In this document: positions 1 through 18,684 of the stretch, in pieces
Layout of the letters: each line of letters begins with the position of its first letter
Position numbering within the stretch: the first letter of the stretch is position 1
Virus record (IMG/VR): IMGVR_UViG_2802429241_000007
Span: 1 to 19,731 of that record
Length of the DNA: 19,731 nt
Reading direction: 5' to 3' (one strand)
DNA from: a virus
Lineage: Duplodnaviria; Heunggongvirae; Uroviricota; Caudoviricetes
The notes under the pieces: model-generated
What the model was told of the DNA's origin: nothing
Seen by the model: the letters and a program-made list of their open reading frames with translations, nothing else
The model's database searches: none
Program-made: the position numbers and the translations under genes

Positions 1-1266
1 ATGAAGCTCAGCGCCAGACAGGTCGAGACCGCAAAACCAAAAGATAAAACCTACAAAATGGCCGATGGCGGCGGTTTGTACCTTGAGGTTTCGGCCAAAG
101 GATCAAAATATTGGCGTATGAAATACAGACGCCCCTCTGACAAAAAAGAGGATCGCCTCGCTTTTGGTGTTTGGCCTACTGTGACGCTTGCTCAGGCAAG
201 AGCAAAGCGCGATGAAGCCAAAAAGCTATTAGTGCAGGGCATTGATCCAAAAGCCGAACAGAAAGAGGCTCAGGCCGAGAACTCGGGGGCATATACTTTC
301 GAAACCATTGCTCGTGAATGGCATGCCAGCAACAAGCGCTGGAGTGAAGACCATCGATCTCGCGTTCTTCGATATCTTGAGCTTTATATCTTCCCTCATA
401 TTGGTTCGTCCGATATTCGTCTACTCAAAACCAGCCACCTGTTAGCCCCAATTAAAAAAGTTGACGCTAGTGGAAAACACGACGTCGCTCAGCGCCTGCA
501 ACAGCGTGTAACGGCCATTATGCGTTATGCTGTACAGAACGATTACATTGACTCGAATCCGGCCAGTGATATGGCTGGTGCGCTATCTACAACCAAAGTG
601 CGACATTACCCTGCGTTACCTTCCTGCCGGTTACCTGAGTTTCTTGCACGTCTCGCTGCATATCGTGGTCGTGTAATGACACGGATCGCAGTCGAGCTTT
701 CCTTACTGACTTTTGTGCGTTCCAGTGAGTTACGTTTCGCGCGTTGGAATGAGTTCGACTTCGATAAAGCCCTTTGGCGCGTACCTGCAAAGCGGGAGGA
801 AATTAAGGGGGTGCGTTACTCGTATCGTGGTATGAAGATGAAAGAGGAGCATATTGTTCCGCTTAGTCGTCAGGCGATGAATTTGTTAGGCCAGTTGAAG
901 CAGATTAGTGGTGATAAGAAACTGCTTTTCCCGGGCGATCATGACGCAACTAAGGTTATGAGTGAAAACACAGTAAACAACGCATTACGGGCGATGGGAT
1001 ATGACACTAAAACCGAAGTTTGTGGGCATGGATTTAGAACGATGGCGCGTGGTGCACTGGGGGAGTCGGGGCTATGGAGCGATGATGCGATAGAGCGTCA
1101 GTTAAGCCATACAGAACGAAATAATGTACGCGCGGCTTATATCCATACTTCTGAGCATTTGGACGAACGTCGATTGATGGTACAGTGGTGGGCTGATTAT
1201 TTGGACGAGAATAAACTAAGAATGATAACACCATTTGATTACGGGAAAATATCTAATATAAAGTGA
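1..1266 (+). CDS. int: P4-family tyrosine integrase
   Basis: 421-aa ORF with ATG at 1. N-terminus MKLSARQVETAKPKDKTYKMADGGGLYLEV is typical of P4-type integrases. C-terminal region has HGFRTMARGAL (His-x-x-Arg box) and a Tyr in RAAYIHT. Sits at the element edge. Confidence 0.9.
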   Translation: MKLSARQVETAKPKDKTYKMADGGGLYLEVSAKGSKYWRMKYRRPSDKKEDRLAFGVWPTVTLAQARAKRDEAKKLLVQGIDPKAEQKEAQAENSGAYTFETIAREWHASNKRWSEDHRSRVLRYLELYIFPHIGSSDIRLLKTSHLLAPIKKVDASGKHDVAQRLQQRVTAIMRYAVQNDYIDSNPASDMAGALSTTKVRHYPALPSCRLPEFLARLAAYRGRVMTRIAVELSLLTFVRSSELRFARWNEFDFDKALWRVPAKREEIKGVRYSYRGMKMKEEHIVPLSRQAMNLLGQLKQISGDKKLLFPGDHDATKVMSENTVNNALRAMGYDTKTEVCGHGFRTMARGALGESGLWSDDAIERQLSHTERNNVRAAYIHTSEHLDERRLMVQWWADYLDENKLRMITPFDYGKISNIK

Positions 1267-1291
1267 GTTTATAAAAATCAACTTTTGAAGC

Positions 1292-1308
1292 GGGGGGATT
1301 CCCCCCCC
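1292..1308. terminator. GC hairpin between convergent int and cargo genes (possible bidirectional terminator)
   Basis: GGGGGG-ATT-CCCCCCCC dyad at 1292..1308, flanked by A/T-rich sequence on both sides, between the int stop (1266) and the minus-strand cargo gene stop (1323). Confidence 0.5.
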
Positions 1309-1322
1309 AACTTTTATAAAAA

Positions 1323-2216
1323 TTAAACATCTTCTCGACGTTTAGAGTTTGCGCGATATAGCGTTCTGGTTATATGGGATGTGAAATAGTCCTCATCTAA
1401 AAAATGCAATAATCTTTTTACATCTTTTCTTATTTGCGGCATTTTTATTTTTTCTAATTCACCGATTTTTTCAGTTTCTAGAACAACACCAATTTCAGCC
1501 GCTGATATTCTTAACTCAGTCACAGAGTAGTCCTCAAGTATTCTTGATTTATTAATCAAGGAAACTTTCTTTCTAATAACAGAGTCAGCAATTGTTGTTA
1601 AATCAAAACCCGGAGCTACTGAAAATTTTTCATGAGAAGAAAAACTTGTTAATTCTTCATTAGTGGCTTCTCTGAAATAAGCATCTACATCAAATATCCT
1701 GCGGAGCATATGGAAGCTTTTAAACTTTAATTCTGTACCTGCAAGAATAGCTGTTAGCTTATTGTCGATGACTATACCATGCTCAGTAGACTGGCAAAAG
1801 GTATTGCTTGCCTGAAATGGTTTTTGGAAAATTGTTCTTCTGTTATCAATAACTTGCCTTTTATCGAAGCTTTGGATTAAGGCAGTTGCAGGTTTTCCAT
1901 CCTCTTCAGGATAGCCTGAAAACAGAGCGATTATATTGAAGACTGATATTTCTTCCGGCTCCCATGGAGGGATAGTTGTGGGATTATTAATAGCATCTAA
2001 TACAGCGATAACATCATCAAAGTCAGGAATGACAAAAAACTCATCTCCACTAGTGATGTAGCCACCTGAAAATTCTACGCCTTCTGTATAGCGTTCTTCA
2101 AAAAAAGTTTTTTGTTCATTGAATAGCTGTGTGATTACATTTTGAGTCGGCCTGTCAGTAACAATTTTTACAATGCGTGTGCCAACTGTATTATCTGTTA
2201 TTGCAAACAATTCCAT
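1323..2216 (-). CDS. Hypothetical 297-aa soluble protein, second gene of cargo operon (candidate defence effector; KwaB-like by architecture only)
   Basis: ATG at 2216..2214 with AGGA Shine-Dalgarno 6 nt upstream. Start lies 8 nt after the stop of the upstream membrane-protein gene. AT-rich relative to the satellite backbone. No catalytic motif recognised by eye. Confidence 0.6.
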   Translation of the reverse strand: MELFAITDNTVGTRIVKIVTDRPTQNVITQLFNEQKTFFEERYTEGVEFSGGYITSGDEFFVIPDFDDVIAVLDAINNPTTIPPWEPEEISVFNIIALFSGYPEEDGKPATALIQSFDKRQVIDNRRTIFQKPFQASNTFCQSTEHGIVIDNKLTAILAGTELKFKSFHMLRRIFDVDAYFREATNEELTSFSSHEKFSVAPGFDLTTIADSVIRKKVSLINKSRILEDYSVTELRISAAEIGVVLETEKIGELEKIKMPQIRKDVKRLLHFLDEDYFTSHITRTLYRANSKRREDV

Positions 2217-2224
2217 ATTTATTC

Positions 2225-2740
2225 CTATATTGCTATATATGTGTAATCAGTAAGCTTAATCAAATTAACACGATTGCCTGATGCTTTTAATAGTGGCTTT
2301 TTCGATAATATAACAAAGCTTACGCCTGTATCGTCTTCGGCTTCATAATATTTATATCCCCAAAATGATAATAATGGGTTGAAACTGTAGGAACCTGAAA
2401 AACTGATGTAAAAAAATAAACTCACAGCAAAGAAAGAAGCAATCCTAATATCCATAAATGCATCTGGACCACTGATTAAGGGAAATAAATAGGTTAAGAA
2501 ATAATTTGTTATCTCCTTATCTGCTGGAGAAGCGGTGGTTAATTTTTTACTGGTTACAGAATTATATTTAATTGCGTATTTAACAATCAAAACACACAGT
2601 AAAAGTATAATTGCACACAATGATAAGTAAGCAATCATAAATTTATAGTGTTTTGATATACATGAAAGAAAAGCTAAGGTAAAAAATACCGGAGCAACTG
2701 AGCTGGCAGTAAGAAGATATTTGGCAAGCTTATTTAACAT
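2225..2740 (-). CDS. Hypothetical small integral membrane protein, about 4 predicted TM helices (KwaA-like by architecture only)
   Basis: ATG at 2740..2738 preceded by a strong AAGGAGG Shine-Dalgarno. Hydrophobic stretches YLLTASSVAPVFFTLAFLSCI, MIAYLSLCAIILLLCVLIV, NYFLTYLFPLI and IRIASFFAVSLFFYISF, then a roughly 60-aa soluble C-terminal tail. AT-rich. Confidence 0.65.
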   Translation of the reverse strand: MLNKLAKYLLTASSVAPVFFTLAFLSCISKHYKFMIAYLSLCAIILLLCVLIVKYAIKYNSVTSKKLTTASPADKEITNYFLTYLFPLISGPDAFMDIRIASFFAVSLFFYISFSGSYSFNPLLSFWGYKYYEAEDDTGVSFVILSKKPLLKASGNRVNLIKLTDYTYIAI

Positions 2741-2937
2741 ATTATCCTCCTTATCTGCCCTGGTATCTGTATATAAAAACAGTATAACATCAATTTAAGC
2801 ATCAAAGAAGATAATAAAAATCAATTAAATCATAATGATGCCTGCGTTTTTAAAGTGTGGGCTTTTGGAGGCGGGTAATGTACGCGCGTATTCCCTGGAG
2901 ATTCCATTTAAAAGGCTACGTATGTAGCCTCATGTAT

Positions 2938-3249
2938 TTAAGAGTACTGGCCCCAATCTCTGGCAATAAACCAGTTTGGCGTCCAGCTAACAAACTCTTG
3001 CGGATGAAAGTTTTGAGGGATTACAACTAGAGATACAATCGCTTCAGGTTGCAAACTGAGAACATGACTTTTTTTATCGCTTTCGTAATCCCAAAAATGG
3101 AATCTGTCACTTTTATCATGAGCTCTACGACTAGGACCGAAGTCCATAGGCGCAGTTAATCTTGTGATTGTCGCGTTATCTTCTTTTGAATAAAAAGTTA
3201 GCTGAATTTTTAAACAACTATGAATGGCATCAATGAATTTATCGCGCAT
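2938..3249 (-). CDS. Hypothetical 103-aa protein, orphan gene at the cos-proximal side of the cargo
   Basis: ATG at 3249..3247 with AAGGAG Shine-Dalgarno 6 nt upstream. Followed on the minus strand by a short GGCTAC-N4-GTAGCC hairpin and a 197-bp AT-rich gap before the next gene. No recognisable motif. Confidence 0.5.
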   Translation of the reverse strand: MRDKFIDAIHSCLKIQLTFYSKEDNATITRLTAPMDFGPSRRAHDKSDRFHFWDYESDKKSHVLSLQPEAIVSLVVIPQNFHPQEFVSWTPNWFIARDWGQYS

Positions 3250-3375
3250 ACGTTCTCCTTTGTAGTTACTAAATTAATATCCTCTATTGATAGATTATTG
3301 TGTGTGATCATTGCGGCATTTAATAAAACGTAATGAGTTCATTGTATTTTATTTATGTTATCAGCCTTGCGCGCA

Positions 3376-3394
3376 GTGCTTTCCCCGCCTCGCC
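3376..3394 (-). other. cos-like cohesive-end site (P2/P4 type)
   Basis: gtgctttccccgcctcgcc is the reverse complement of GGCGAGGCGGGGAAAGCAC, which I recall as the 19-nt P2/P4 cohesive end. It is followed by the GC-rich dyad ccgcccgctttgcggggcgg. Position between psu and the cargo genes matches the P4 map. Confidence 0.6.
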
Positions 3395-3495
3395 CGCCCG
3401 CTTTGCGGGGCGGTTTTAATGCAGTTGCACTGACACGCTCAGACCGCGCCGGGAATGGTGCGGTCTGCAGAAAATGAGGCAGGAAAACGCATGCA

Positions 3496-3528
3496 AAGCC
3501 ATGCACCTTATCGATGCATGGCTTTTTT
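3496..3528 (+). terminator. Rho-independent terminator-like hairpin between cos and psu
   Basis: Perfect 10-bp stem AAGCCATGCA / TGCATGGCTT with a 9-nt loop, followed by a T-run on the plus strand. It may also act on read-through in the other direction. Confidence 0.45.
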
Positions 3529-3558
3529 CAGTAAAAACGGGAGGATTTTCGGGGAATT

Positions 3559-4131
3559 TTACACAGACTGACGTGATGCCAGTTGCGCACTTTTACGCGA
3601 AAAAATCATGTTCTGCGCAGGGGTGAATTTTTCACGGCTGTCATCCACCGAAGCCGCGTCAGGCCTGAATCCGATGGTCGTTAAAATGTCGCTATCCTGT
3701 GCGGAATAATTAATTTTTTCACCCTTCGCAAGCCAGGACAGGAGGGCTTCACGCAGGGCATCTGTGGCACGCTGTATGGCACAGTTTCGGGCAATGGCCG
3801 TCAGCTCACTGTAGCCCATCAGCTCCGGTGCCAGTGCCGCCGCCAGTGCTGTGCCGTGCTGCTGCATAAAATCATTCAGCCGGTCGCGGATGCTGATGTG
3901 CTGAACGGCTTCATGCGAACGAATATAACGACCGGCGGCCTGATTCACCTGCCATTTTCTGACTTCGATAATATTGCGTAATTCGTCCAGGCGGCTGACG
4001 TTTCTGCCTTCTCCTGACAGAAGCCGCAGATATTCCTGTTCGGCCGCTGCCAGCTCATTTTTGCGTTGCAGCCATGCTGCTTTGTTATTCTGACAGGTGT
4101 CAAAGGCCTGCTGTAAGGCTGTGCTTTCCAT
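3559..4131 (-). CDS. psu: Psu-like polarity suppression / capsid decoration protein
   Basis: 190-aa ORF starting MESTALQQAF, last gene of the sid-delta-psu block next to cos. Length and position match P4 Psu as I recall it. Confidence 0.8.
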   Translation of the reverse strand: MESTALQQAFDTCQNNKAAWLQRKNELAAAEQEYLRLLSGEGRNVSRLDELRNIIEVRKWQVNQAAGRYIRSHEAVQHISIRDRLNDFMQQHGTALAAALAPELMGYSELTAIARNCAIQRATDALREALLSWLAKGEKINYSAQDSDILTTIGFRPDAASVDDSREKFTPAQNMIFSRKSAQLASRQSV

Positions 4132-4204
4132 CGTTATCTCTTTCTCATCATGCTGAAGAATAAAAATACGGTGTGCGGCGACGGCCGGGGTTAACCGGCA
4201 GCCC

Positions 4205-4705
4205 TCATTCCAGACGCAGCGAATATGATTGTGTTTTTAACCGTACTGGCGGCAGTTCCTGTTTTTCATGCAGGCGTTCTGCCAGTTCGTCCGGCGTGAC
4301 CGGGCGGACAATGAAGCGGGTGATGGTCTGAAGCGTTTTAAACACCAGACCACAGCCCGGATCCGTGCACACATAAAAACGCTCGGTGACTTCCTGAGAC
4401 AGACGCCGCGATGTTCTTGACAGCGCAAGGCCTTTACATCTCCGACAACAATATCCGGTAACAAGCATTCTTTTCGGGCGTTTCATACTGCCGGAGGCCG
4501 ACGTCAGTGAATCGCGGTATCTCTGTTTGCCTGAAATGTATTCCATTCCTGAATCTTTACTGTCAGAGAAAAAGCTTTCACTCGCTTCAAATGTCGCAGA
4601 GCAATAAATATTCCGGCACTGTGCAATCATTATCTTGGTGCCATCGTCCATGAAATGTGCGCGACGGGTGTGAGCAACATGTCCACACGACGGGCAGTAA
4701 ATCAT
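4205..4705 (-). CDS. delta: Delta-like late transcription activator (tandem Ogr-type zinc-finger domains)
   Basis: 166-aa ORF with two Cys-rich modules (CPSCG...C...C near the N-terminus, CCRRCKG and CTDPGCG further on). Start ATG overlaps the sid stop (ATGA). Confidence 0.8.
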   Translation of the reverse strand: MIYCPSCGHVAHTRRAHFMDDGTKIMIAQCRNIYCSATFEASESFFSDSKDSGMEYISGKQRYRDSLTSASGSMKRPKRMLVTGYCCRRCKGLALSRTSRRLSQEVTERFYVCTDPGCGLVFKTLQTITRFIVRPVTPDELAERLHEKQELPPVRLKTQSYSLRLE

Positions 4706-5436
4706 GACAGCAGTCCTCTGGCCTTAAGCTCTGCTCCCTGCTGGTCTATTTTGTCCTGCCACACCTTGCGCTGTGCCGGTGTGCCTGCCACCTCATAATC
4801 CATGTGCGGGAGTGTTGCCGCTGACAGTCCGGCCAGCCGGAGAACCGGCTCGCCGGTGAGGCTGATTTGCATCTGTTTAATTTTCTGTTCCAGCGATGAT
4901 TTCACCTGCTGCATGACAGCCTTATCGGGTGCGACGTAGCCCTGATGGCCGGTGGTGTTGGCGAGCGGATTTTCCTGTACCAGGATACTCAGATGCATTG
5001 CCCGGACAAGCGCCTCACAGGTTTCATTCAGGGCGTGTTCCAGCTCATGCTCTGCATACAGACTCAGAAGGTGATGATGTGCCTTCCGGTAGGCGGTGGC
5101 CGTGCTGTCACACGCCCCTTTCAGGCGTTCACGTTCGAAATTCAGCACCACGGCCAGATTGTCATATTCCTGTACCAGCTCCCGGCGTGCCACGCGCTCA
5201 ATGTGGCGCTGTTTCAGCTCGTCGCTCAGGACACCACCGGCTGCACGAAAGGCCGTGCGCCAGTCGTCAGCGTCGTTTCCGTCGGCCTGCGCCAGCGCAT
5301 TTTTTTCCTGCTCTGCCCGTTCAATGGCCGTGACGGTCTCATCCATCAGGCGGGCGTTCTCAAGATGGGCGGCTCTGGCCTTTTCCAGTTGTGCCAGCGC
5401 GGGTTGCAGATATTCAGGGATGGTGTTGTCAGACAT
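4702..5436 (-). CDS. sid: Sid-like capsid size-determination (external scaffold) protein
   Basis: The track ORF starts at GTG 5454. I place the start at ATG 5436..5434 (MSDNTIPEY...), which has a GAGGAG Shine-Dalgarno and gives 244 aa, the size I recall for P4 Sid. Ala/Glu/Leu-rich helical composition. Confidence 0.8.
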   Translation of the reverse strand: MSDNTIPEYLQPALAQLEKARAAHLENARLMDETVTAIERAEQEKNALAQADGNDADDWRTAFRAAGGVLSDELKQRHIERVARRELVQEYDNLAVVLNFERERLKGACDSTATAYRKAHHHLLSLYAEHELEHALNETCEALVRAMHLSILVQENPLANTTGHQGYVAPDKAVMQQVKSSLEQKIKQMQISLTGEPVLRLAGLSAATLPHMDYEVAGTPAQRKVWQDKIDQQGAELKARGLLS

Positions 5437-5470
5437 TTTCCGGCTCCTCGTCACTTCAGGTTAAGAAAAT

Positions 5471-5526
5471 TGTGACGTACACCGGACAACAACACGACGC
5501 ATTGCAGATGTGCCAGCCCTGACACA
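5471..5526 (-). promoter_or_regulatory. Candidate Psid late promoter with two TGT-N12-ACA activator dyads
   Basis: TGT-N12-ACA at 5471..5488 and 5509..5526, centred about 38 bp apart. This fits the -18 and -55 arrangement I recall for Delta/Ogr-dependent P4 late promoters if transcription starts near 5462, just upstream of sid. Confidence 0.45.
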
Positions 5527-5605
5527 GGAGACTCATCCTCAGACCGGCAAGCCAGGAAAAGGTCGCAGGAAAAACCTGCTTACTGTTTGTTTTTTTATGT
5601 TTTAC

Positions 5606-5709
5606 TGTTCACCTCTGTTCACCATAAGAAAAAAGATAAGTAATACAGTAAGTTAAAGGGTGAACAATCGCAGTAATGACTGTTCACCGTCTGTTCACCA
5701 CTGTTCACC
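5606..5709. repeat. Iteron cluster (TGTTCACC octamers), ori-like alpha-binding region
   Basis: TGTTCACC at 5606, 5616, 5681, 5692 and 5702, plus an inverted copy GGTGAACA at 5659. The same octamer recurs in the crr-like repeats after alpha. I recall this as the P4 type I iteron. Confidence 0.6.
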
Positions 5710-5867
5710 CGTTGATGAGCTTTTTGTGCTGTTTATTACTGTTTATTTTTATTAATTCACTGAAATAAATAAGAAAAAACAATTTGTATTTCACTATAAT
5801 TTTTTCCAGCTCCTTCCAGAGCGTTTTAAAGCTATCTGGCGCTGATGTGCAAAAAACACACAGCCAT

Positions 5868-5885
5868 TGTAAGGCTGCCGGAACA
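5868..5885 (+). promoter_or_regulatory. Candidate late-left promoter activator site upstream of vis
   Basis: TGT-N12-ACA dyad (tgtaaggctgccggaaca) about 100 bp upstream of the vis-like ATG. No clean second dyad at -18. Confidence 0.3.
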
Positions 5886-5987
5886 AATCCCCCCTGTTGC
5901 GTCTGCCAAAAATATTCACAAAATAAAGCGCTACCCGAAGCCGGACGGACTTATCCGGTGCTGTATGGACATTAACGAGGTAGCCCG

Positions 5988-6254
5988 ATGCAAGCTGTTT
6001 TTTCTTCCCCGTCTCCCGCCCCTGTGACGCCACTGATGCCGCTGCCGGACATCACGCAGGAGCGTTTTTTACGTCTGCCGGAAGTGATGCACCTGTGCGG
6101 CCTGTCACGCTCGACCATCTACGAACTCATCCGTAAGGGGGAATTTCCGCCGCAGGTGAGTCTTGGCGGTAAAAATGTGGCCTGGCTGCACTCTGAAATC
6201 ACCGCATGGATGGCCGGGCGCATTGCCGGACGCAAACGGGGGTACGACGCATGA
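5988..6254 (+). CDS. vis: Vis/AlpA-family small DNA-binding regulator (excisionase-like HTH)
   Basis: 88-aa ORF with the HTH core [30 protein letters not shown] typical of AlpA/Vis regulators. ATG preceded by GAGG. The 88-aa length matches P4 orf88 (vis) as I recall it. Confidence 0.7.
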
Positions 6255-6289
6255 TGATGCCCGCTCTGCAAAAAGTCCCTTTTTCTGGC

Positions 6290-6319
6290 TTGCCTTTTTC
6301 CGGCATTTGCGGATATAGT
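6290..6319 (+). promoter_or_regulatory. Candidate sigma70 early promoter (PLE-like)
   Basis: TTGCCT (6290..6295), 18-bp spacer, TATAGT (6314..6319), oriented toward the early operon and upstream of the repeated leader elements. Confidence 0.3.
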
Positions 6320-6346
6320 TTTTCCGCTGTCGCAAAATCGGCAGCC

Positions 6347-6625
6347 GGGCGTAGGAACCCGTGTAACTCGAAGGCGACATATGACGCGCCATGCGTCTTT
6401 TTTTGTGTCGCAATCAACGCCACAGAGCGCCAGATTATGGTTTGCCGTGCAGGTATGATCCTGTTCGCAATCGCATGTTATGCCACTGAGTCAATGGTAG
6501 CTCAGGCGGGGCAGCCTCCGGGCTGGCCGGTATTCTTCGAGGCCGGTATTCCTACCCCCGTCTGGGCTATCGCCATCGAGCGTAGGAACTCCGGCGATAG
6601 CAGTTATTTGCTACTCGAAGGAGAC
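6347..6625 (+). ncRNA. Candidate RNA-immunity leader (seqA / seqB / seqC-like elements, CI-RNA-like region)
   Basis: GTAGGAAC...CTCGAAGG occurs twice (6349..6374 and 6580..6623). Between them, CTTCGAGGCCGGTATTCCTAC (about 6538..6556) is complementary to both arms. The second copy overlaps the Shine-Dalgarno of the first early ORF. Confidence 0.35.
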
Positions 6626-6631
6626 TGCCTT

Positions 6632-6829
6632 ATGGCTACAACCCTTACCCCCTCACACCCTGAATTTGTCTTTGTGTTTGCGGCTGTCCGTCGCGCAGAC
6701 CGTCATCCCCGTATCTGCATGCTTCGCACCGTCGCCGGTGATGAACGCAGTGCCCGCCGTTCCCTTGTCCGTGACTATGTGCTCTCCCTTGCTGCCCGTC
6801 TGCCGGTGGTGGAGGTGTCCCGTGCGTAA
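6632..6829 (+). CDS. Small hypothetical protein (65 aa), first ORF of the early operon (kil-like position)
   Basis: ATG at 6632 with AAGGAG Shine-Dalgarno 8 nt upstream. The long track ORF 6206..6829 is otherwise implausible because it runs through the RNA-leader region. Confidence 0.35.
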
Positions 6830-7109
6830 TAAAAAAGCCCCTCAGACCGTCTCAGCGCGTCATGACGCCCGTGAACACCTCAGCATTGAGGCTTACCATA
6901 AGCTCAACCGCGCCAGCGCCGTATCCCAGTTTGTTGGGGGTGATTTGATTCACCGTGAACTCTCCGGCCTGCATCAGCTCTACATTCCGCATATTTTCAG
7001 CTACCTGAATGAAGATATTGATTTTGTGCTGAATGAGCTGAAAACCAAAGGCCTGTGCCGCGATTTTCTCGCCCAGCAGAAAGACCGGGGAGACAGGACG
7101 CATGTTTGA
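6822..7109 (+). CDS. Hypothetical 95-aa protein (epsilon-like by position and size)
   Basis: GTG start at 6822 with GGAGG 6 nt upstream. The start overlaps the preceding stop and the stop overlaps the next start (translational coupling). Confidence 0.45.
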
Positions 7110-7557
7110 TTTTCCCCAGCCCGGTGAGATTTACCGTTCTGCCGGTTTTCCCGATGTGGCCGTGGTCGGCATTCTGGAAGACGGTATTCCGTGGGAAATG
7201 CCGTACCGCTGCCCGGACATTGTCTGGAACCCGTACCGCCGTAAATTCAGTATCCTTGTGCGTATCCTCGCTGACGGGCGCACCACAGACATCCCGCTGG
7301 GGCGTTTTCTGCGGGAATTTACCTGTGACCGTCCTGACCTGTTCAAACGCAGCCCCGTAAACCGGCATGCGGTACTGAAAGAAATGGCCGGAGACCCGGA
7401 ATTACAGAAATGGCGGGAGAAATATCTGGATATTTACCCGCAGGACCCTGTTCCGGTCAGCCGGGCGGCACCGGTGGCGCGGGAATGGCGGGAAATTCCC
7501 CGCACGGAGCCTGACCCGGAAATCACCCCGGATAACAGTTACCGCAATTATCTGTAA
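7102..7557 (+). CDS. Hypothetical 151-aa protein (same size and position as P4 orf151)
   Basis: ATG at 7102 overlapping the upstream stop, GGAG upstream. No motif recognised. Confidence 0.6.
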   Translation: MFDFPQPGEIYRSAGFPDVAVVGILEDGIPWEMPYRCPDIVWNPYRRKFSILVRILADGRTTDIPLGRFLREFTCDRPDLFKRSPVNRHAVLKEMAGDPELQKWREKYLDIYPQDPVPVSRAAPVAREWREIPRTEPDPEITPDNSYRNYL

Positions 7558-7692
7558 TTAAAAAACGACACCCGAAAAATTAAATGTGCGTATTCGCGCA
7601 GGGATACGCACGTCTTCAGGAGACGCAGATATGCCTTATCAGTTAATGCAACCGGCACGGAATGCAGTCATCTGTCACAGGGAGGAAAGCAA

Positions 7693-8013
7693 ATGAAAAC
7701 ACCCTTACCGCCCGTCTTACGCGCAGCCCTTTACCGTCGCGCTGTCGCCTGTGCCTGGCTGACCGTGTGCGAACGTCAGCACCGCTACCCGCATCTCACC
7801 CTTGAATCACTGGAGGCGGCCATCGCCGCTGAGCTGGAAGGCTTTTATCTGCGCCAGCACGGTGAGGAAAAAGGGCGTCAGATAGCCTGTGCCCTGCTGG
7901 AAGATTTAATGGAATCCGGCCCCCTGAAGGCCGCGCCGTCGCTGTCCTTTCTCGGGCTGGTTGTGATGGATGAACTCTGTGCCCGTCACATAAAAGCGCC
8001 GGTACTGCACTGA
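7693..8013 (+). CDS. Hypothetical 106-aa protein (same size and position as P4 orf106)
   Basis: ATG at 7693 with GGGAGG Shine-Dalgarno. Immediately upstream of alpha. Confidence 0.6.
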
Positions 8014-8027
8014 AGGAGAACAACACC

Positions 8028-10361
8028 ATGAAAATGAACGTAACCGCCACCGTCAGCCATGCGCTCGGCCACTGGCCGCGTATTCTCCCGGCACTGGGGA
8101 TTCAGGTGCTGAAAAACCGTCATCAGCCCTGTCCGGTCTGTGGCGGGAGTGACCGCTTCCGTTTTGATGACAGGGAGGGGCGCGGCACCTGGTACTGCAA
8201 TCAGTGTGGTGCCGGTGACGGCCTGAAACTGGTTGAAAAGGTGTTTGGTGTCTCCCCGTCCGACGCGGCCGCAAAGGTGGCTGCCGTGACAGGCAGCCTG
8301 CCCCCGGCTGACCCGGCAGTGACGGCTGCCGCCGTTGCTGAAACAGAAGCTGCCCGGAAGAACGCTGCCGCACTGGCACAAACCCTGATGGCAAAAACCC
8401 GTCCCGGAACCGGTAACGCCTACCTGACCCGCAAGGGCTTTCCCGACCGGGAATGCCGGATGCTGACCGGCACACACAGAGCCGGTGGCGTGAGCTGGCG
8501 CGCCGGTGACCTTGTGGTGCCACTGTATGACGACAGCGGCGAACTGGTTAACCTTCAGTTAATCAGTGCTGACGGCCGTAAGCGCACCCTGAAAGGCGGA
8601 CAGGTCAGGGGCACCTGTCACACCCTTGAAGGACAGAATCAGGCCGGAAAACGTCTGTGGATAGCGGAGGGATACGCGACCGCACTTACCGTGCATCACC
8701 TGACCGGTGAAACGGTGATGGTGGCGCTTTCTTCCGTGAACCTCCTTTCTCTGGCCAGCCTTGCCCGGCAGAAGCATCCGGCCTGTCAGATTGTCCTTGC
8801 CGCAGACCGTGACCTCAGCGGTGACGGCCAGAAAAAAGCCGCCGCAGCCGCAGATGCGTGTGAGGGCGTTGTTGCCCTGCCGCCGGTCTTCGGTGACTGG
8901 AATGATGCCTTCACGCAGTACGGCGGGGAAGCCACCCGTAAGGCCATTTACGATGCCATCCGGCCACCGGCTGAAAGCCCGTTCGACACCATGAGCGAAG
9001 CGGAGTTTTCCGCCATGAGTACCAGCGAAAAGGCCATGCGTATCTATGAGCATTACGGCGAGGCGCTCGCGGTCGATGCCAACGGCCAGCTTCTGTCCCG
9101 CTATGAAAATGGTGTCTGGAAGGTGCTGCCGCCACAGGACTTTGCCCGGGATGTGGCCGGGCTGTTTCAGCGGCTGCGTGCGCCGTTCTCCTCCGGGAAG
9201 GTGGCCTCCGTGGTGGACACCCTGAAGCTGATTATTCCGCAGCAGGAAGCCCCCTCCCGCCGCCTGATTGGCTTTCGTAACGGTGTGCTCGACACACAGA
9301 ACGGCACGTTCCACCCGCACAGTCCGTCACACTGGATGCGTACCCTGTGCGATGTGGATTTCACCCCGCCGGTGGAAGGGGAAACGCTGGAAACCCACGC
9401 TCCCGCGTTCTGGCGCTGGCTTGACCGTGCTGCCGGTGGTCGTGCGGAAAAACGCGACGTGATTCTGGCCGCACTGTTTATGGTGCTGGCAAACCGCTAC
9501 GACTGGCAGCTCTTTCTGGAGGTGACCGGTCCCGGCGGCAGCGGCAAAAGTATCATGGCCGAAATAGCCACCCTGCTGGCCGGGGAGGATAACGCCACGT
9601 CGGCCACCATCGAGACGCTGGAATCCCCGCGTGAACGTGCCGCGTTAACTGGCTTCTCACTGATACGCCTGCCGGACCAGGAAAAATGGAGCGGCGACGG
9701 TGCCGGACTCAAGGCCATCACCGGCGGCGATGCGGTGTCCGTTGACCCGAAATACCGGGATGCGTACTCCACGCACATCCCGGCGGTGATTCTGGCCGTG
9801 AACAATAACCCGATGCGCTTCACCGACCGCAGCGGCGGCGTGTCACGCCGGCGGGTGATTATTCACTTCCCGGAACAGATAGCCCCGCAGGAGCGCGACC
9901 CGCAGCTTAAGGACAAAATCACCCGCGAGCTGGCGGTCATCGTGCGTCACCTGATGCAGAAGTTCAGCGACCCGATGCTCGCCCGGTCACTGCTTCAGTC
10001 CCAGCAGAACTCAGACGAGGCACTGAACATCAAACGGGATGCCGACCCGACGTTTGATTTTATCGGCTATCTGGAAACCCTGCCGCAGACCAGCGGCATG
10101 TATATGGGGAACGCCAGTATCATCCCGCGTAATTACCGTAAATACCTCTATCACGCCTATCTGGCCTACATGGAGGCAAACGGCTACCGGAATGTACTCA
10201 GTCTGAAAATGTTCGGGCTGGGGCTGCCGGTGATGCTGAAGGAATACGGACTGAATTACGAGAAGCGCCATACCAAACAGGGGATACAGACCAACCTGAC
10301 GCTGAAAGAGGAAAGCTACGGCGACTGGCTGCCAAAATGTGACGACCCTGCAACAACCTGA
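8028..10361 (+). CDS. alpha: Alpha-like replication protein (zinc-binding primase, TOPRIM, helicase with Walker A)
   Basis: 777-aa ORF with AGGAG Shine-Dalgarno. N-terminal CPVCGG...CNQCG zinc motif and Walker A GPGGSGKS. Length matches P4 alpha as I recall it. Iterons on both sides. Confidence 0.9.
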   Translation: MKMNVTATVSHALGHWPRILPALGIQVLKNRHQPCPVCGGSDRFRFDDREGRGTWYCNQCGAGDGLKLVEKVFGVSPSDAAAKVAAVTGSLPPADPAVTAAAVAETEAARKNAAALAQTLMAKTRPGTGNAYLTRKGFPDRECRMLTGTHRAGGVSWRAGDLVVPLYDDSGELVNLQLISADGRKRTLKGGQVRGTCHTLEGQNQAGKRLWIAEGYATALTVHHLTGETVMVALSSVNLLSLASLARQKHPACQIVLAADRDLSGDGQKKAAAAADACEGVVALPPVFGDWNDAFTQYGGEATRKAIYDAIRPPAESPFDTMSEAEFSAMSTSEKAMRIYEHYGEALAVDANGQLLSRYENGVWKVLPPQDFARDVAGLFQRLRAPFSSGKVASVVDTLKLIIPQQEAPSRRLIGFRNGVLDTQNGTFHPHSPSHWMRTLCDVDFTPPVEGETLETHAPAFWRWLDRAAGGRAEKRDVILAALFMVLANRYDWQLFLEVTGPGGSGKSIMAEIATLLAGEDNATSATIETLESPRERAALTGFSLIRLPDQEKWSGDGAGLKAITGGDAVSVDPKYRDAYSTHIPAVILAVNNNPMRFTDRSGGVSRRRVIIHFPEQIAPQERDPQLKDKITRELAVIVRHLMQKFSDPMLARSLLQSQQNSDEALNIKRDADPTFDFIGYLETLPQTSGMYMGNASIIPRNYRKYLYHAYLAYMEANGYRNVLSLKMFGLGLPVMLKEYGLNYEKRHTKQGIQTNLTLKEESYGDWLPKCDDPATT

Positions 10362-10377
10362 CCCTCATGACCCACCT

Positions 10378-10402
10378 GACCGGCATCTGCCGGTCTTTTT
10401 TT
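10378..10402 (+). terminator. Rho-independent terminator after alpha
   Basis: GACCGGC-ATCT-GCCGGTC stem-loop followed by TTTTTTT, 17 nt after the alpha stop. Confidence 0.65.
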
Positions 10403-10418
10403 ATCCCTGAATTCCCCG

Positions 10419-10512
10419 CAGGTGAACAATCCACTGTTCACCCTTCACCGTATATTCACCCGTTATCACACTGAAATTAAAAGAGAAAAACGAAAGGTGA
10501 ACAGTGTGAACA
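10419..10512. repeat. crr-like direct repeat, copy 1 (iteron-containing)
   Basis: 94-bp unit beginning caggtgaacaatccactgttcaccc and ending gaaaggtgaacagtgtgaaca. Contains TGTTCACC/GGTGAACA octamers. Confidence 0.65.
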
Positions 10513-10598
10513 ATCAAATCAAAAAAAACTTTTTTCTTCCTGAGTGATTTCAGTACGGGGGATTAATCACCGGTATGAGTCACACCGGCAGAATGCCG

Positions 10599-10692
10599 GA
10601 GGTGAAGAATCGAATGTTCACCCTTCACCCATTATTCACCACCTATCACTATGAAATAAAAGGAGAAAAAAGAAAGGTGAACAGTGTGAACA
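10599..10692. repeat. crr-like direct repeat, copy 2
   Basis: 94-bp unit closely matching copy 1 (gaggtgaagaatcgaatgttcaccc...gaaaggtgaacagtgtgaaca). Confidence 0.65.
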
Positions 10693-10906
10693 GTTCTTCC
10701 GAAAAAAAATTTTTTATGTGGATAAAAGATGCACTGGTTTGGATCCGAACTACGGATCCAAACTTACTGATTAAAAATTATTTAACTTTCCGATTTGTTG
10801 ATGGGCTGAAAATAGATTGGTCAGAAAAACAGTGGGGGCACAAAAGGGGGCATATTTCATTGTTGTGTTTTATTATTTGTTTTTTATCATTGACTTATTT
10901 TGATGT

Positions 10907-10927
10907 TTGAGTCCGGCCTTCGCACCA
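10907..10927 (+). other. att-like partial repeat of the tRNA-Leu 3' end (distal boundary of the satellite)
   Basis: GTTTGAGTCCGGCCTTCGCACCA closely resembles the 3' end of E. coli tRNA-Leu leuX (GGTTCGAGTCCGGCCTTCGGCACCA, from memory), the P4 integration target. Two differences, so either a degenerate copy or imperfect recall. Confidence 0.5.
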
Positions 10928-11560
10928 TACCGTATGCAAATCGAGTCGCTCAAGGGCGGCTTTTTTTGTATATAAAATCTAGTATCCGTAAGGCTTTCCT
11001 CGCTTTTTCACGTAACCTAAGTCAGCCAACTTTAATCTACATTAACTTATTGATGGCGAGTGCCTCTGCTGGTATTTCCCGGTTAGATAATATTTGTTCT
11101 CACACGAACCCTCTGAAAGGATATTCATTGTGGCTCTGAGTGATGTGAAAGTTCGTTCGGCAAGGTCTGAGTAAAAGCTTATAAACTACCGGATAGTGAA
11201 CTATTAATAAAAGCGATACGGGGCTATCTGGAATACCCCGGCAACATGCCGCTGCCTGAACAGATTACAAATGTCGCTGTATTCGAAGATGTGTATCGTT
11301 TCCTGTTGAATGGTTCCGGTGGCTGGAGCTGCGCCGTACTGATGTGGCAGCAGTCCGTGTCTTCCTTTAGAATTATCGATATCGCCATTGTGATGCAATA
11401 GGTAAACCGCAGCGCCTCATTTCTGCCGTGTGCCGGATCATTGCTATCGAACCAGGCACCAACGTGCTGTAGTACATCGTTCTGCTAATGATGCGGAGAG
11501 GGGATATGTATCGTAAGAATTATTTTGTAATAAATCTAATGAATCCAACATAGGGTAAGA

Positions 11561-11588
11561 ATAAAAGGGTAGGCCACGAAACCTACCC
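11561..11588 (-). terminator. Rho-independent terminator after the methyltransferase gene
   Basis: On the minus strand: GGGTAGG-N8-CCTACCC followed by a T-rich run, 8 nt after the methyltransferase stop. Confidence 0.5.
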
Positions 11589-11595
11589 TGTATGG

Positions 11596-12849
11596 TTATC
11601 TTTTATTTATCTTATCTAAAAGATGTACCACAGATTTGCCAACAGCAAATGACAGATTAACAGGAACAGCATTTCCTATTTGCTTATATTTCGCTGACAT
11701 TGGGCCTTCAAATACCCAGTCATCGGGGAAGGTCTGTATTCTTGCATACTCACGCACAGTTAATGGTCTTGTTTCTTCTGGGTGGCAACGCTCTGTTTGT
11801 TTCTGTGCTGGGGCGCATGTTAATGTTAGGCTTGGTTCATCCCATGACAAGCGACGAGCCATACCAGTTTTGCCCCCTCCTAAGTAAAAACTCTTGAGCA
11901 TGTATTCTTTTTGAATATCTTCTGGAAGATCTCTCCAATAGCCACCGGGAGGAACCATACTTAGGATCTCTGCTTTTCTTTTGGGATATTTTTGTCCCTC
12001 AGATTCTGGCACGTCGCTATCGTACAAGTCTCCCTTTTTTAATGCATCTTTAAGGGTTAATATTTTATTGTAAGAAGAAGGCCACTCATAATCGATGCCA
12101 TCAGCAAGATCATTTCTTACAGCTACAATGATCAAACGCTCTCGTTTTTGCGGCACTTTGTAGAAAATAGCCTTAAGTACTCTTGGCTCAAATAAAGTGT
12201 AGCCCAAGTCTGTGATAATATTTTTTATTGTTTCTAAAGTTCGCCCATCATCATGATTTAGCAACCCTCGAACATTCTCTGCTAAAAGAACTTTCGGATT
12301 GACTTCTTTAGCTGCTCGGGCGAATTCAAAGAAAAGGGTGCCCCGTGTGTCTTCAAAACCAAGTTTTTTGCCTGCATAAGAGAATGCCTGGCAAGGAAAG
12401 CCACCAGCCAGCACATCAACGGTATTCCTATAAGGAGTGAAGTCTACTTGGCTCACATCGCCTTCAACCACATTCCATTCAGGCCTATTTTTTCGTAACG
12501 TCTTACAAGCATGGGAGTCAATTTCATTTAGTAAAACAGATTTTAAACCTGCTTTTTCCAAACCTAAAGCCATCCCCCCTGCGCCAGCAAATAACTCTAA
12601 TACAGTATAAACATTATTGCTAATTTTAGTCTCATCAGACCACTGGCTTTTAAATAAAAACTGAGCTTGTTCAAAATTTTTAAGTTGCTCTTTTTTATAA
12701 AATCGATAGTTGTTTTCGTCATTTCTTTGAGAAACTAATTTTCCAGCAGTATCCCAACGCCTTAAAGTTTCTTTTGAAACACCCAAAATGTCTGCAACTT
12801 CTGAAAGTGAAAATTCTTCCTTTAACATATTTAGTAACCATGCCAACAT
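11596..12849 (-). CDS. DNA (cytosine-5)-methyltransferase with N-terminal HTH domain
   Basis: Canonical C5-MTase motifs: I LFAGAGGMALG, IV GFPCQAFS, VI ENVRGLL, VIII QKRERLIIV, X GNAVPV. N-terminal roughly 50 aa looks like a MerR-type HTH (SLSEVADILGVSKETLRRWDTAGKL). Start may be ATG 12849 or the ATG 21 nt downstream (MLKEEF). Confidence 0.85.
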   Translation of the reverse strand: MLAWLLNMLKEEFSLSEVADILGVSKETLRRWDTAGKLVSQRNDENNYRFYKKEQLKNFEQAQFLFKSQWSDETKISNNVYTVLELFAGAGGMALGLEKAGLKSVLLNEIDSHACKTLRKNRPEWNVVEGDVSQVDFTPYRNTVDVLAGGFPCQAFSYAGKKLGFEDTRGTLFFEFARAAKEVNPKVLLAENVRGLLNHDDGRTLETIKNIITDLGYTLFEPRVLKAIFYKVPQKRERLIIVAVRNDLADGIDYEWPSSYNKILTLKDALKKGDLYDSDVPESEGQKYPKRKAEILSMVPPGGYWRDLPEDIQKEYMLKSFYLGGGKTGMARRLSWDEPSLTLTCAPAQKQTERCHPEETRPLTVREYARIQTFPDDWVFEGPMSAKYKQIGNAVPVNLSFAVGKSVVHLLDKINKR

Positions 12850-12908
12850 TAGTCATGGTTACTACTGTATGAGTTTACATGTACTTTGTCAAACGTTGAT
12901 CATGGTTA
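12833..12908. promoter_or_regulatory. Candidate operator: CATGGTTA boxes around the methyltransferase start
   Basis: AGTAACCATG (12833..12842) and CATGGTTACT (12854..12863) form a 10-bp inverted repeat with an 11-bp spacer that contains the ATG at 12849. A third CATGGTTA box lies at 12901..12908. Confidence 0.35.
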
Positions 12909-13628
12909 TCAGCCGTAAGCGAGCCCAAAATACTTAATAAAACTATCTTTATCAGGGATGGAAAAGCCTTGCTGCCCAAGACGCTCGCTCAAAATATACT
13001 CAATTGCGTGAGGAAGAGCACTATGGAGTTCTTGTAGAGCATCTGGTCTGCCTGTGACAAGTTCATAGAAGCTCGCACCATCAATGATTCGAATTTTAGG
13101 GTTCGAAGGACACAGAGTACCGCTACCTTTATTGGAAGGGGTAAAAGGGATGTCATATCTGATAGGTTTACGAGGGATTATATTAACAAAGTACGCGCAG
13201 TAATCCTTAAATCGGCTATGTTTCGGTGATACTAACTCATCTAAACCTTTATACTTATCTGCTAAATCCCCGCCAGTAACCGTTGAGTATTTATTTTTCA
13301 CCTCAGCGATGATTCTTCTCTCTTCATTGAGAAGATCAACGATGCCACCAATCCCCATATCCCGCCATCCTTCAACATGGCCGAGGATTTTTTGGTGAAA
13401 AGTACCAACATGATTTTGAATGGTTTTCTGTCGTTGTCGTGCGAGTTCGGAGTTTCGCCACTCTTCATGGGATGAGAACCCTGGAGCTTCAAAAAGTGCG
13501 CCAAAAGGGTCAATCACATTGCTGGTAAAAGTCTTCTCAGCGGCGTCTTTTTTCTTTTTAGCTTTCGTTAATAAGGTTTCAACTTCGTTAAAAAGATCTT
13601 CATCACTGATATATTCAAGTAATGACAT
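12909..13628 (-). CDS. Putative type II restriction endonuclease (PD-(D/E)xK-like), upstream partner of the methyltransferase
   Basis: 239-aa ORF with ATG at 13628 and GGAG upstream, co-directional with and 59 bp upstream of the C5-MTase. Candidate catalytic core IVD...(12 aa)...AEVK is consistent with PD-(D/E)xK. AT-rich. Confidence 0.5.
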   Translation of the reverse strand: MSLLEYISDEDLFNEVETLLTKAKKKKDAAEKTFTSNVIDPFGALFEAPGFSSHEEWRNSELARQRQKTIQNHVGTFHQKILGHVEGWRDMGIGGIVDLLNEERRIIAEVKNKYSTVTGGDLADKYKGLDELVSPKHSRFKDYCAYFVNIIPRKPIRYDIPFTPSNKGSGTLCPSNPKIRIIDGASFYELVTGRPDALQELHSALPHAIEYILSERLGQQGFSIPDKDSFIKYFGLAYG

Positions 13629-14662
13629 AGTTGTATCTCCATCATTCTTTATAATTCAATAAATTTTTCGCGTAATAACCTTTGGGAGCTATTGTGGTTA
13701 CGGCTAATTACACGACAGCTCTCAAAAACGACACTGGAGCAAGTTTTCTAATCATAACGATTACAGACATAGATTAAAACGATCAATGAGCACTTAAAGA
13801 GAGGGGGGGTTGTGGTGTGATCTGAATGGCTTGTGCTGAGGATTCGAGCAATATGTTACGGGGATAGGGGATTGAAGTGGCACACTGAATTTGGCTACCT
13901 GAACAGAGGTGATATGCTCACCTCTGAATCTGCTCGTTGATTTTGTTCAGCAAACTATTGAGCAGGAAATACAACGTTACGGCAACCAGTACCGCAGTTT
14001 TGCGTGTCACCAGTTGATGAGTTAAAAATGGGAGAGGATGAGTTGGCGAATAATCCTCTCTACCAGATACGCTATCAGCAGTTTGTTTCTCCAATGGTGT
14101 ATGGAGAACGAAAGATCACATGGGATGAGGCTTACTCCAGGTTTAGGAGCTTAGCGTTAGCCATCCTGAATGCTTGATATGCAGCATTTGTCTTTATTTG
14201 AAATTCCGATAAACATCGTGAAGCGTTAAAGTACCGACTGATTATTCAGTTTGTTGATTTTTCAGAGAATCGCGCTGAGTATACATGTGAATATACAAAG
14301 TGATTTTGGCTATGAAATCACATTTATTTCAATGAGTTATCTTTTAAAGAGCAGCCCAGTCTTCACATCAATAGACGTCAACTGAGGTCTTTTTTTATGC
14401 CTGAAATCCGCGCCACACAAATCTTTTCCGCTGTTTTTTCCAACTAACGTCAACCTGGTTCAATCCATATTAAATCCCTGAAGAATACCGAACCAAGTAT
14501 GTTTGCGCTTATCTATTAAGGATTCGGCTCTTTCAGAAAATCTAATCCATCCTCCAGGCACAATATTTATTGCGATCGTGCTCGCATCGTGGACAATGTT
14601 TAATCATAAGTAATATTTACATCAATGAAATCAATGATTTCTATTATGTCACGGAATGGAAA

Positions 14663-17600: not shown

Positions 17601-18178
17601 CGCGAGGGTTATTGGCAAAATTTCTGTTTGCTTCAGATAATAATGCGTTGCAATTTGAGTTTCAGAAACGGCAGGATTTAAGTTCCGCACAGACACAAAT
17701 TTCAACGTTGCATGGTGTGGAGCAGCATGATGAATTTTTGAATAATGCTCTGGCCGCAGCTCAACAGAAGATCACGATTATTTCCCCTTGGTTATCCTGG
17801 CAAAAAGTGGAGCAAACGGGTTTTCTTGCGTCGATGGCTCTGGCCCGTTCCCGGGGTATTGATATTACCGTGGTAACGGATAAAAACTGCAATATTGCGC
17901 ATGTCGATGATGATAAGCGCCAGGAGAAACTGCATCTTCTAAATGATGCAGTCGAAAAGCTCAATAATATGGGCATTGCTACAAAATTGGTGAATCGCGT
18001 TCACAGCAAAATTGTGATTAGAGATGAGGAGTTGCTGTGCGTTGGATCTTTTAACTGGTTCAGTGCTGCGCGAGAAGATAAATATCAACGATACGATACG
18101 TCTTTGGTGTACCGTGGCGAAGGCGTAAAAAATGAAATAAAGGCGATATATAGCAGTCTGGATCAACGTCAGCTATAA
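14663..18178 (+). CDS. Upf1-like SF1 helicase fused to a C-terminal PLD-family (HKD) nuclease domain; candidate single-gene defence protein (Mokosh type II-like)
   Basis: Walker A GPPGTGKT (15542..15565), Walker B DEAGQ (16751..16765), helicase motifs [28 protein letters not shown] and [18 protein letters not shown]-terminal HSKIVIRD-x6-GSFN is a textbook HxK-x4-D-x6-GSxN PLD signature (18002..18055). The track ORF starts at TTG 14570; the first in-frame ATG is 14663. About 290 aa N-terminal to Walker A (from ATG 14663) has no motif I recognise. Confidence 0.8.
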
Positions 18179-18684
18179 GTGTGATGAACAGTTCACAACA
18201 CAGGAGTGGTAAGGGATATATTTTAACAATGTGAAGGCGACTTTCAGATTTATTGCGAGTCGCTTTTCCTGATTTTCAATCTTATTGTTTACCTAATCAT
18301 TCTCCTTTGCATAATGCGCCTGGCATTAACGACAGGGGCTTTTAGGAATGAAAGCAGATACAACAATGGCCTAATGTCTTCGGCCCGTATTAAGCATATC
18401 ATCATTGTCTAATTGCCAGAATCCATCGCCTTGTAATCGCCAGAACGGCATATCAGGCCGATACTGCGAATGCTGTGATCCAAAACGTTCCAGTAAACTG
18501 TGCAGAGGTTCGTAGATTTCCGAGCCATAATCGAAAAGGCGTGGATGTCCATGCTGGTAGCCAGCCAATACGTATAGCAGTAACAGAGGTTTATGTGGCG
18601 CGCGCTGTTCACCCTTGTGCCAGATTTTTATGTTGGCAATTGCCTGCTGTTCAAACCCGCAAGCGAAGATATATTACCTTGATC

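Follow-up and report, generated by a model that had tools for sequence, protein, structure and literature searches.

A stand-alone WYL-like protein gene next to cos in the cargo hotspot of a P4-like satellite

The DNA analysed here, called the window, is a 19,731-nt stretch of the virus record IMGVR_UViG_2802429241_000007 (positions 1 to 19,731). The element that it contains is a P4-like satellite. Its genes and signals, among them the gene for a 103-aa protein that is the subject of this study, are the following.

1..1266, plus strand: P4-type integrase gene, which bounds the hotspot on the far side; in matching E. coli genomes its annotation is tyrosine recombinase, and it lies beside tRNA-Leu
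1323..2216, minus strand: KwaB (DUF4868), the Kiwa effector (PADLOC KwaB, E = 6.5e-117; Pfam KwaB)
2225..2740, minus strand: KwaA, the Kiwa membrane component (PADLOC KwaA, E = 1.6e-76), lying outside the WYL-like gene's own unit
2741..2937, minus strand: 197-bp spacer from the WYL-like gene to kwaA
2912..2931, minus strand: terminator-like hairpin with an 8-bp stem and a UUUUAAAU tail, 7 nt past the stop codon of the WYL-like gene
2938..3249, minus strand: gene for the 103-aa stand-alone WYL-like protein (coordinates include the stop codon)
3255..3260, minus strand: Shine-Dalgarno AAGGAG, read from the sequence, with a 5-nt spacer to the ATG at 3249..3247
3376..3394, minus strand: P4/P2 cos 19-mer GGCGAGGCGGGGAAAGCAC, identical to bases 1-19 of phage P4 (NC_001609)
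3559..4131, minus strand: psu, which bounds the hotspot on the near side; its annotation is phage polarity suppression protein, and it has the length and position of P4 psu
4205..4705, minus strand: delta, a P4 backbone gene
4702..5454, minus strand: sid, a P4 backbone gene
6326..6403, plus strand: isrK (Rfam, 69 bits), in the P4 immunity region
6490..6577, plus strand: C4 antisense RNA (C4/CI RNA; Rfam, 74 bits), in the P4 immunity region
8028..10361: alpha primase-helicase (777 aa), a P4 backbone gene

The matches to isrK and C4 RNA confirmed that the element is P4-like. They were also the only RNA families, at 6326-6577, detected when Rfam was run on the window and on positions 2600-3600, and no RNA family was found in or beside the WYL-like gene. 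The cos 19-mer was matched by no shuffle of the window. Since cos lies at 3376..3394, the WYL-like gene, which is located 127 bp inside it and is the first gene inside it, is the cos-proximal gene of the hotspot, as the preliminary description of this DNA had placed it. That description had also pointed to a well-formed Shine-Dalgarno, to a hairpin and a 197-bp gap before the downstream operon, and to a strand and an AT-rich composition shared with that operon. Each of these points was borne out: AAGGAG occupies 3260..3255, 5 nt before the ATG; the hairpin and the gap map to 2912..2931 and 2741..2937; and all three cargo genes are on the minus strand, with a GC content of 0.39 for the WYL-like ORF, 0.31 for KwaA and 0.36 for KwaB, against 0.50-0.61 for the P4 backbone genes.

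On the psu side of cos, a GC-rich inverted repeat (CCGCCC...GGGCGG then TTTT) was found at 3394-3413, beginning at the last base of the cos 19-mer. A second hairpin, recognised by eye after the psu stop codon at about 3500-3530 (GCCATGCA...TGCATGGC then TTTT), probably terminates the sid-delta-psu operon. On the right-hand side, beyond alpha, positions 10400-19731 matched complete E. coli genomes at only about 94% identity with a coverage of at most 62%. The annotated matches in this part comprise a phosphorothioated-DNA-binding restriction endonuclease, an HNH endonuclease, the helicase YjhR and a sialate O-acetylesterase, and it looks like a second variable defence-type island adjoining the satellite. 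In E. coli RM8082 (L101), a gene for a canonical 297-aa wHTH-WYL-WCX regulator (27667-28560) lies about 2 kb past the satellite's alpha gene, next to IS100 and several large hypothetical genes; no 297-aa ORF was present at the corresponding place of the window.

The ORF at 2938..3249 (minus strand) starts with ATG, encodes 103 aa and ends with TAA. A word-indexed protein search recovered 91 homologues with identities down to 43%, nearly all of them 103-110 aa long, and 18 residues were invariant in an alignment of 35 homologues. Comparison with the Pantoea, Serratia, Psychromonas and Methylophilus orthologues (the four comparisons with estimable dS) gave dN/dS values of 0.07-0.11, which indicate that the gene is under strong purifying selection. 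Taken together, the number of homologues of the same length, the invariant residues and the low dN/dS show that this is more than a chance reading frame. Conservation, on which the preliminary description had made its case depend, was therefore found. That the ORF might be a non-functional leftover, or else the toxin or antitoxin of a classical pair, is suggested by its small size and its mobile-element context. A leftover is excluded by the strong purifying selection and by the cross-phylum conservation described below. As for a toxin or antitoxin, which had been among the roles first proposed, no small partner gene is adjacent in the window, the next gene is separated by the 197-bp gap and the hairpin, and no TA-family model matched, so that this explanation as a whole is barely plausible.

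The hairpin at 2912..2931 has a predicted energy of -13.8 kcal/mol and a weak U-tail, and its z score of -1.58 has no significance alone. Comparison with Pantoea, Serratia, Yersinia, solo P4-like loci and small plasmids revealed a terminator-like hairpin past the stop codon in all of these related lineages, each of a different sequence. Because equivalent hairpins recur in this manner, the hairpin of the window is likely to be a terminator. A simple scan of the gene's strand for a sigma-70 consensus promoter detected none, either upstream of the WYL-like gene or in the 197-bp spacer; the spacer presumably holds the Kiwa promoter. As read from its ribosome binding site and the terminator-like hairpin, the WYL-like gene appears to form a small transcription unit of its own at this locus.

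Scanning the 103-aa ORF against Pfam, PADLOC, NCBIfam and PHROGs gave no match at E <= 1, and against PDB sequences a profile search produced nothing better than a chance match (E = 1.4). A profile search of 1.84 billion representative proteins delineated a family of 404 clusters at E <= 0.001. The best 150 of the 404 clusters consist of stand-alone proteins of about 100-115 aa, and no domain fusion was seen among these 150. The few longer family members match only at their C-terminal end, as would be expected from miscalled starts. Identities of 42-65% are retained from Enterobacterales to Saccharibacteria.

The AF2 model of the protein (pLDDT 93.8, pTM 0.85) predicts one N-terminal helix, a five-stranded Sm/SH3-type barrel with WYL topology and a Trp-rich tail. 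In the fold comparison generic Sm/Hfq barrels came next, at about 6.7, and the Foldseek ranking was the same. Alignment by hhalign with canonical wHTH-WYL-WCX proteins was weak (probability 27.7%, E = 6e-4) and fell on the WYL core. In this profile-profile register, the paired positions are F19/Y140, S21/S142, R30/R151, P34/P155, R49/R164, H51/H166 and Y55/Y170. S21, R30, P34, R49 and H51 are invariant in the family and Y55 is near-invariant, and their aligned partners are invariant in canonical WYL proteins. The family consensus has a Cys at position 32, two residues past R30, which most members carry. Makarova et al. (2014) describe a WYL core in which basic residues, together with a position that is often Cys, line the ligand groove, and the conserved basic residues and the position-32 Cys agree with that pattern. 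The preliminary description had recognised no motif in this protein; in fact two motifs, R-x-[TC]-A-P-M-D and R-F-H-F-W-D-Y, constitute a divergent WYL core. The Trp-rich C-terminal tail (W89, W93, R97, W99) is invariant and family-specific. Neither a helix-turn-helix nor a WCX domain was found in the 103-aa protein, which is all barrel and tail. The profile and structure homology searches that had been proposed for this gene thus led to a WYL-like fold. That the protein is a divergent minimal WYL-like domain with no DNA-binding domain is well supported by the predicted structure together with the conserved residues, and its WYL membership at the level of sequence is weak.

The gene has already been catalogued. 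System 14 ('WYL/DUF4868') of the P4-like hotspot catalogue of Rousset et al. (2022, PMC9122126) contains, in Tables S1B and S2, the identical 103-aa sequence; it is given 93 occurrences in that data set and was cloned as pFR79, 'WYL-Kiwa', from E. coli TA280. In a direct comparison, the three catalogue proteins of system 14 matched the window translations: the same 103-aa protein, KwaA and KwaB occupy the same place between psu/cos and int, and we found no difference between the loci. The catalogue, independently of our analysis, annotates the 103-aa protein as WYL with a PF13280 match, and Table S1B offers the guess that it regulates Kiwa (PMC9122126). According to the main text of the same article, seven of the 19 cloned systems were protective, and WYL-Kiwa is not one of the seven named there. 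The Domainator paper gives the same hotspot type as a three-CDS 'Kiwa' cluster. The gene is hence known, with the same tentative regulator role. What the present analysis adds to the catalogue is structural support for the fold, a stand-alone family, ATPase/OLD partners and evidence against Kiwa specificity.

Among the roles listed in the preliminary description, that of a regulator fits best, given the WYL-like fold and the guess of Rousset et al. (2022), whereas that of a component of the Kiwa operon does not hold, for reasons given below. In its most specific form, the protein would be a dedicated transcription regulator of Kiwa resembling BrxR or CapW, that is, a ligand-released repressor acting on the kwaA promoter. 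The WYL fold, the position directly upstream of a defence operon and the entry in Table S1B all speak for it. However, BrxR, CapW, DriD and PafBC each possess a wHTH and a WCX domain (in canonical relatives, PF13280 occurs together with PF26109 and PF26107), while the 103-aa protein has neither of these nor any other DNA-binding domain, is 10-15% identical to them and has a Trp-rich tail of its own. On the modelled architecture, it cannot work as an operator-binding repressor or activator. Moreover, as detailed below, related Kiwa loci lack the gene, and the gene also occurs beside unrelated, oppositely oriented cargo. A dedicated Kiwa regulator of this kind is therefore decidedly improbable.

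Other small or accessory WYL proteins were also compared. WYL1, the Cas13d accessory protein of type VI-D CRISPR, has about 390 aa with an added ribbon-helix-helix domain; its likeness to the 103-aa protein is weaker than that of BrxR or PafBC, and there is no CRISPR context at the window gene. The YolD-like and DUF2693 proteins are likewise single-domain members of the WYL superfamily of about 100 aa, some of them on mobile elements (Makarova et al. 2014). However, the 103-aa protein matched neither of them in Pfam at E <= 1, and YolD accompanies Y-family polymerases, a different context.

Every copy of the gene in Enterobacterales lies directly inside the cos site of a P4-like element, or of what is left of one, and is oriented away from cos. 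The cargo behind it differs from host to host.

E. coli and Serratia: Kiwa, with gene, spacer and kwaA collinear
Yersinia enterocolitica (L088-L092): a convergent DUF2971 gene at 6379-7194 (PADLOC PDC-S31, E = 4e-47)
L099/L100: a convergent DUF6119 gene
Pantoea: a 302-aa gene and a T5orf172 gene; homology to the window spans cos to the hairpin and ends there
L095-L098: no cargo, the hotspot consisting of cos, the gene, the terminator and int

A neighbour-joining tree, built without bootstrap, grouped all the P4-context copies in a single clade. Collinearity of L095 with the window extends over psu, cos and the gene, at 67% throughout. From these comparisons, the gene appears to be long established next to cos in a single lineage of satellites, with the cargo beyond its terminator being exchanged.

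Insertions and decay were also observed at these loci. IS1 is inserted between the gene and cos in E. coli FORC_042 (L001, 6355-7052), and an IS421 element lies inside the hotspot of 64EVA (H31). In about ten E. coli genomes, nothing but the final 73 nt of the gene is left (for example L002, 6001-6073). The neighbours of this remnant in L094 (5001-6715) are an integrase pseudogene, a KwaA of 92% identity and a KwaB that has been shortened, in an ICE-like island with ArdC, DUF1281 and a methylase; the locus represents the same cargo in a state of decay. Such remnants were set aside as a clue to function, since only these 73 nt are left and KwaB is cut.

The association with Kiwa was considered from both sides. 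The whole cargo block was present in 35 of 5426 complete E. coli genomes, and at least 46 other E. coli genomes carry a related Kiwa (about 67% nucleotide identity). Two of these related loci were inspected, one in an island of strain MS 115-1 and the other between Q and the holin gene of a lambdoid prophage, with KwaB of 294-297 aa and KwaA of 172-173 aa. The WYL-like gene was absent from both, and a profile search agreed. In the paper on the mechanism of Kiwa, the system consists of two proteins, joined in a KwaA-KwaB supercomplex, and includes no accessory gene. On the side of the gene, most family members have no Kiwa neighbour, and the linkage occurs only in the E. coli and Serratia P4-like lineage, the Serratia block of gene, spacer and kwaA being 74.5% identical to that of the window at the nucleotide level (spacer about 74%). 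Co-occurrence with the two downstream genes thus fails both from the Kiwa side and from the gene side, which argues against a Kiwa-specific role. The WYL-like gene is not Kiwa-specific, and the earlier suggestion that it could be a third component of the downstream operon is not supported: the two inspected related loci do without it, and elsewhere it is found with other cargo or alone.

Contexts outside P4 were surveyed by scanning one genome per species. Of the 80 loci obtained in this way, 71 could be used. The loci come from Gammaproteobacteria, Bacteroidota, Cyanobacteria, Actinobacteria, Firmicutes, Acidobacteria, Armatimonadota, Chloroflexota, Saccharibacteria and an archaeal bin; neighbouring ORFs were called crudely, so that the counts are approximate. 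An ATPase adjoined the gene in 29 of the 71 loci (about 40%), in at least seven phyla. The commonest operon partner was an OLD-family ATPase-TOPRIM nuclease, adjacent in 19 loci (Pfam AAA_15 and OLD-like_TOPRIM; PADLOC Old, E = 5e-56); in 14 of these 19 cases the OLD gene came next downstream in the same orientation, at a distance of -55 to +51 nt. An AAA_13 ABC ATPase was adjacent in 8/71 loci, with a match to PADLOC PDC-S06 at E = 7e-268 among them, and an SMC-like ATPase in 2/71. On an Arcobacter plasmid, the gene overlaps by 4 nt with a PDC-S06-type gene, within an island that contains SbcCD, DUF2779 and dGTPase genes. OLD genes are rare in genomes, and adjacency in 19 of 71 independent loci for this reason cannot be due to chance. 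The ATPase-linked members are dispersed over all parts of the family tree, and some adjoin the P4 clade. The other neighbours are of the types found in defence islands: restriction-modification, AbiE, PIN, nSTAND, SLATT and dCTP-deaminase-like. PADLOC searches with 16 further neighbour proteins that had no ATPase match gave uninformative or weak results, with the exception of the Yersinia DUF2971 protein (PDC-S31).

P2 Old, Gabija (GajA/GajB) and PARIS (AriA/AriB) are defence systems with a nuclease of the OLD family, to which this commonest partner also belongs. We know of no OLD system type with a small WYL-type partner, and our literature search found no report of a stand-alone WYL protein or of a WYL-OLD pairing. 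No OLD gene was seen among the large ORFs of the window, part of which were scanned. An OLD nuclease 43% identical to a WYL-linked one is encoded by the inovirus Vibrio phage vB_Vipa71 (L124, 1368-3161), where its gene adjoins a 'DNA repair protein' gene and the WYL-like gene is absent from the locus. The occurrence of OLD without the gene, and of the gene without OLD, implies that the partnership is facultative on both sides.

One way of relating the copies that lack an ATPase to those that have one is that the ancestral protein restrains or gates an OLD/ABC-ATPase nuclease, and that partner-less copies are orphaned antidotes neutralising nucleases of the host or helper, such as the Old protein of P2-type helpers. 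The old gene of P2 helpers is indeed carried in their own hotspot. In addition, ATPase-linked members span the tree and flank the ATPase-less P4 clade, the gene is usually upstream of the nuclease, as antitoxin genes are, and for the partner nucleases the top-scoring PADLOC model is 'Old', and searches with them find P2 Old. However, the partner nucleases are just 23.5% identical to P2 Old. A tblastn search of 50,697 sequenced phage genomes gave no match to the WYL-like gene, which would be unusual for a counter-defence gene. The same absence weighs on the anti-defence role that had been among those first proposed, conceivable though that role is. We regard the antidote explanation as rather improbable.

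Variable slots of other mobile elements were found to hold the gene as well. In some Acinetobacter Vieuvirus-type prophages, it is apparently alone in a variable slot after the repressor gene and a 71-aa gene (L113, 5983-6321); in phage A2490.3 (L123, 1978-4245) the same slot holds a gene for a methyltransferase of 755 aa, whose annotation reads type I subunit M. E. coli plasmids of 2.8-4.3 kb carry a homologue of 45-50% identity (L102, 2779 bp; L104, 2885 bp; L103, 4263 bp), together with a second gene on the same strand, which encodes 237 aa, coiled-coil-rich by eye, in L102 and L104, and 172 aa in L103. The L102 plasmid also has a gene for a VbhA-family antitoxin.

These contexts raise the possibility that the gene is an autonomous single-gene module, which acts alone or with host factors in trans, for instance by binding or sequestering nucleic acid, and for which the adjacency to Kiwa is mere stacking of cargo. 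Its job could then be defence, exclusion or counter-defence for the carrier element. Such autonomy is in keeping with the sole gene between cos and int in L095-L098, with the apparently solitary gene of the repressor-adjacent Acinetobacter slot, where A2490.3 has its methyltransferase, with the presence of the gene on the 2.8-4.3 kb plasmids, and with its own ribosome binding site and terminator in all enterobacterial and plasmid lineages examined. It also agrees with the changing cargo (Kiwa, PDC-S31/DUF2971, DUF6119, 302-aa plus T5orf172, or none) within the one P4-context clade. However, the tight operon coupling to OLD/ABC ATPases in about 40% of the loci, across phyla, is hard to explain without a partnership. 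The small plasmids, moreover, always have a second variable gene after the homologue, and a 103-aa ligand-binding barrel has no evident effector activity. A purely autonomous function is thus possible, if somewhat doubtful.

The reading that we favour, tentatively, is that the gene encodes a separately transcribed, portable WYL-like sensor/adaptor module rather than a dedicated Kiwa subunit. The conserved groove (S21, R30, P34, R49, H51, Y55 and the R41/R42 loop) may bind a nucleic-acid-type ligand such as ssDNA, by analogy with the solved DriD and CapW structures, in which ssDNA is bound. Having no HTH, the protein would pass the signal on by protein-protein contact or by its own binding to nucleic acid, and effectors would be acted on directly rather than through operator-binding repression. 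Across bacteria, the recurrent operon partner is the OLD-family ATPase-TOPRIM nuclease or another ABC-type ATPase. Several observations do not fit such an adaptor easily. The cargo is on the opposite strand in Yersinia and L099, and the gene is the sole hotspot gene in L095-L098 and alone in the Acinetobacter slot; with opposite-strand or absent cargo, a purely autonomous function explains these cases equally well. Furthermore, the 43%-identical OLD homologue occurs without the gene.

A more specific proposal, which we consider unlikely, is that a WYL-like sensor and an OLD/ABC-ATPase nuclease make up an undescribed two-gene defence architecture, in which the barrel would gate the effector directly upon sensing an ssDNA-type ligand. 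The partner-less copies on satellites, prophages and plasmids would then act in trans, plug into other systems, for example Kiwa, or counter OLD-type nucleases of the host or of P2 helpers.

The picture of the locus itself is little altered: 'WYL-Kiwa' had been catalogued before with this gene in it, and Kiwa is a two-protein system elsewhere. The pattern at the level of the family is that of a WYL-only protein coupled to OLD/ABC-ATPase nucleases and carried alone by satellites, prophages and small plasmids, and we did not find this pattern (WYL-only with OLD/ABC-ATPase, solo on mobile elements) described in the literature. No predicted sensor is attached to defence systems more often than the WYL domain, and to our knowledge all well-studied defence WYL proteins act via a fused DNA-binding domain. 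The family described here offers a simple system in which to ask which ligand the WYL barrel senses, and by what route other than transcription its signal arrives at an effector. The control of class-1-like OLD nucleases is a further matter on which it could shed light.
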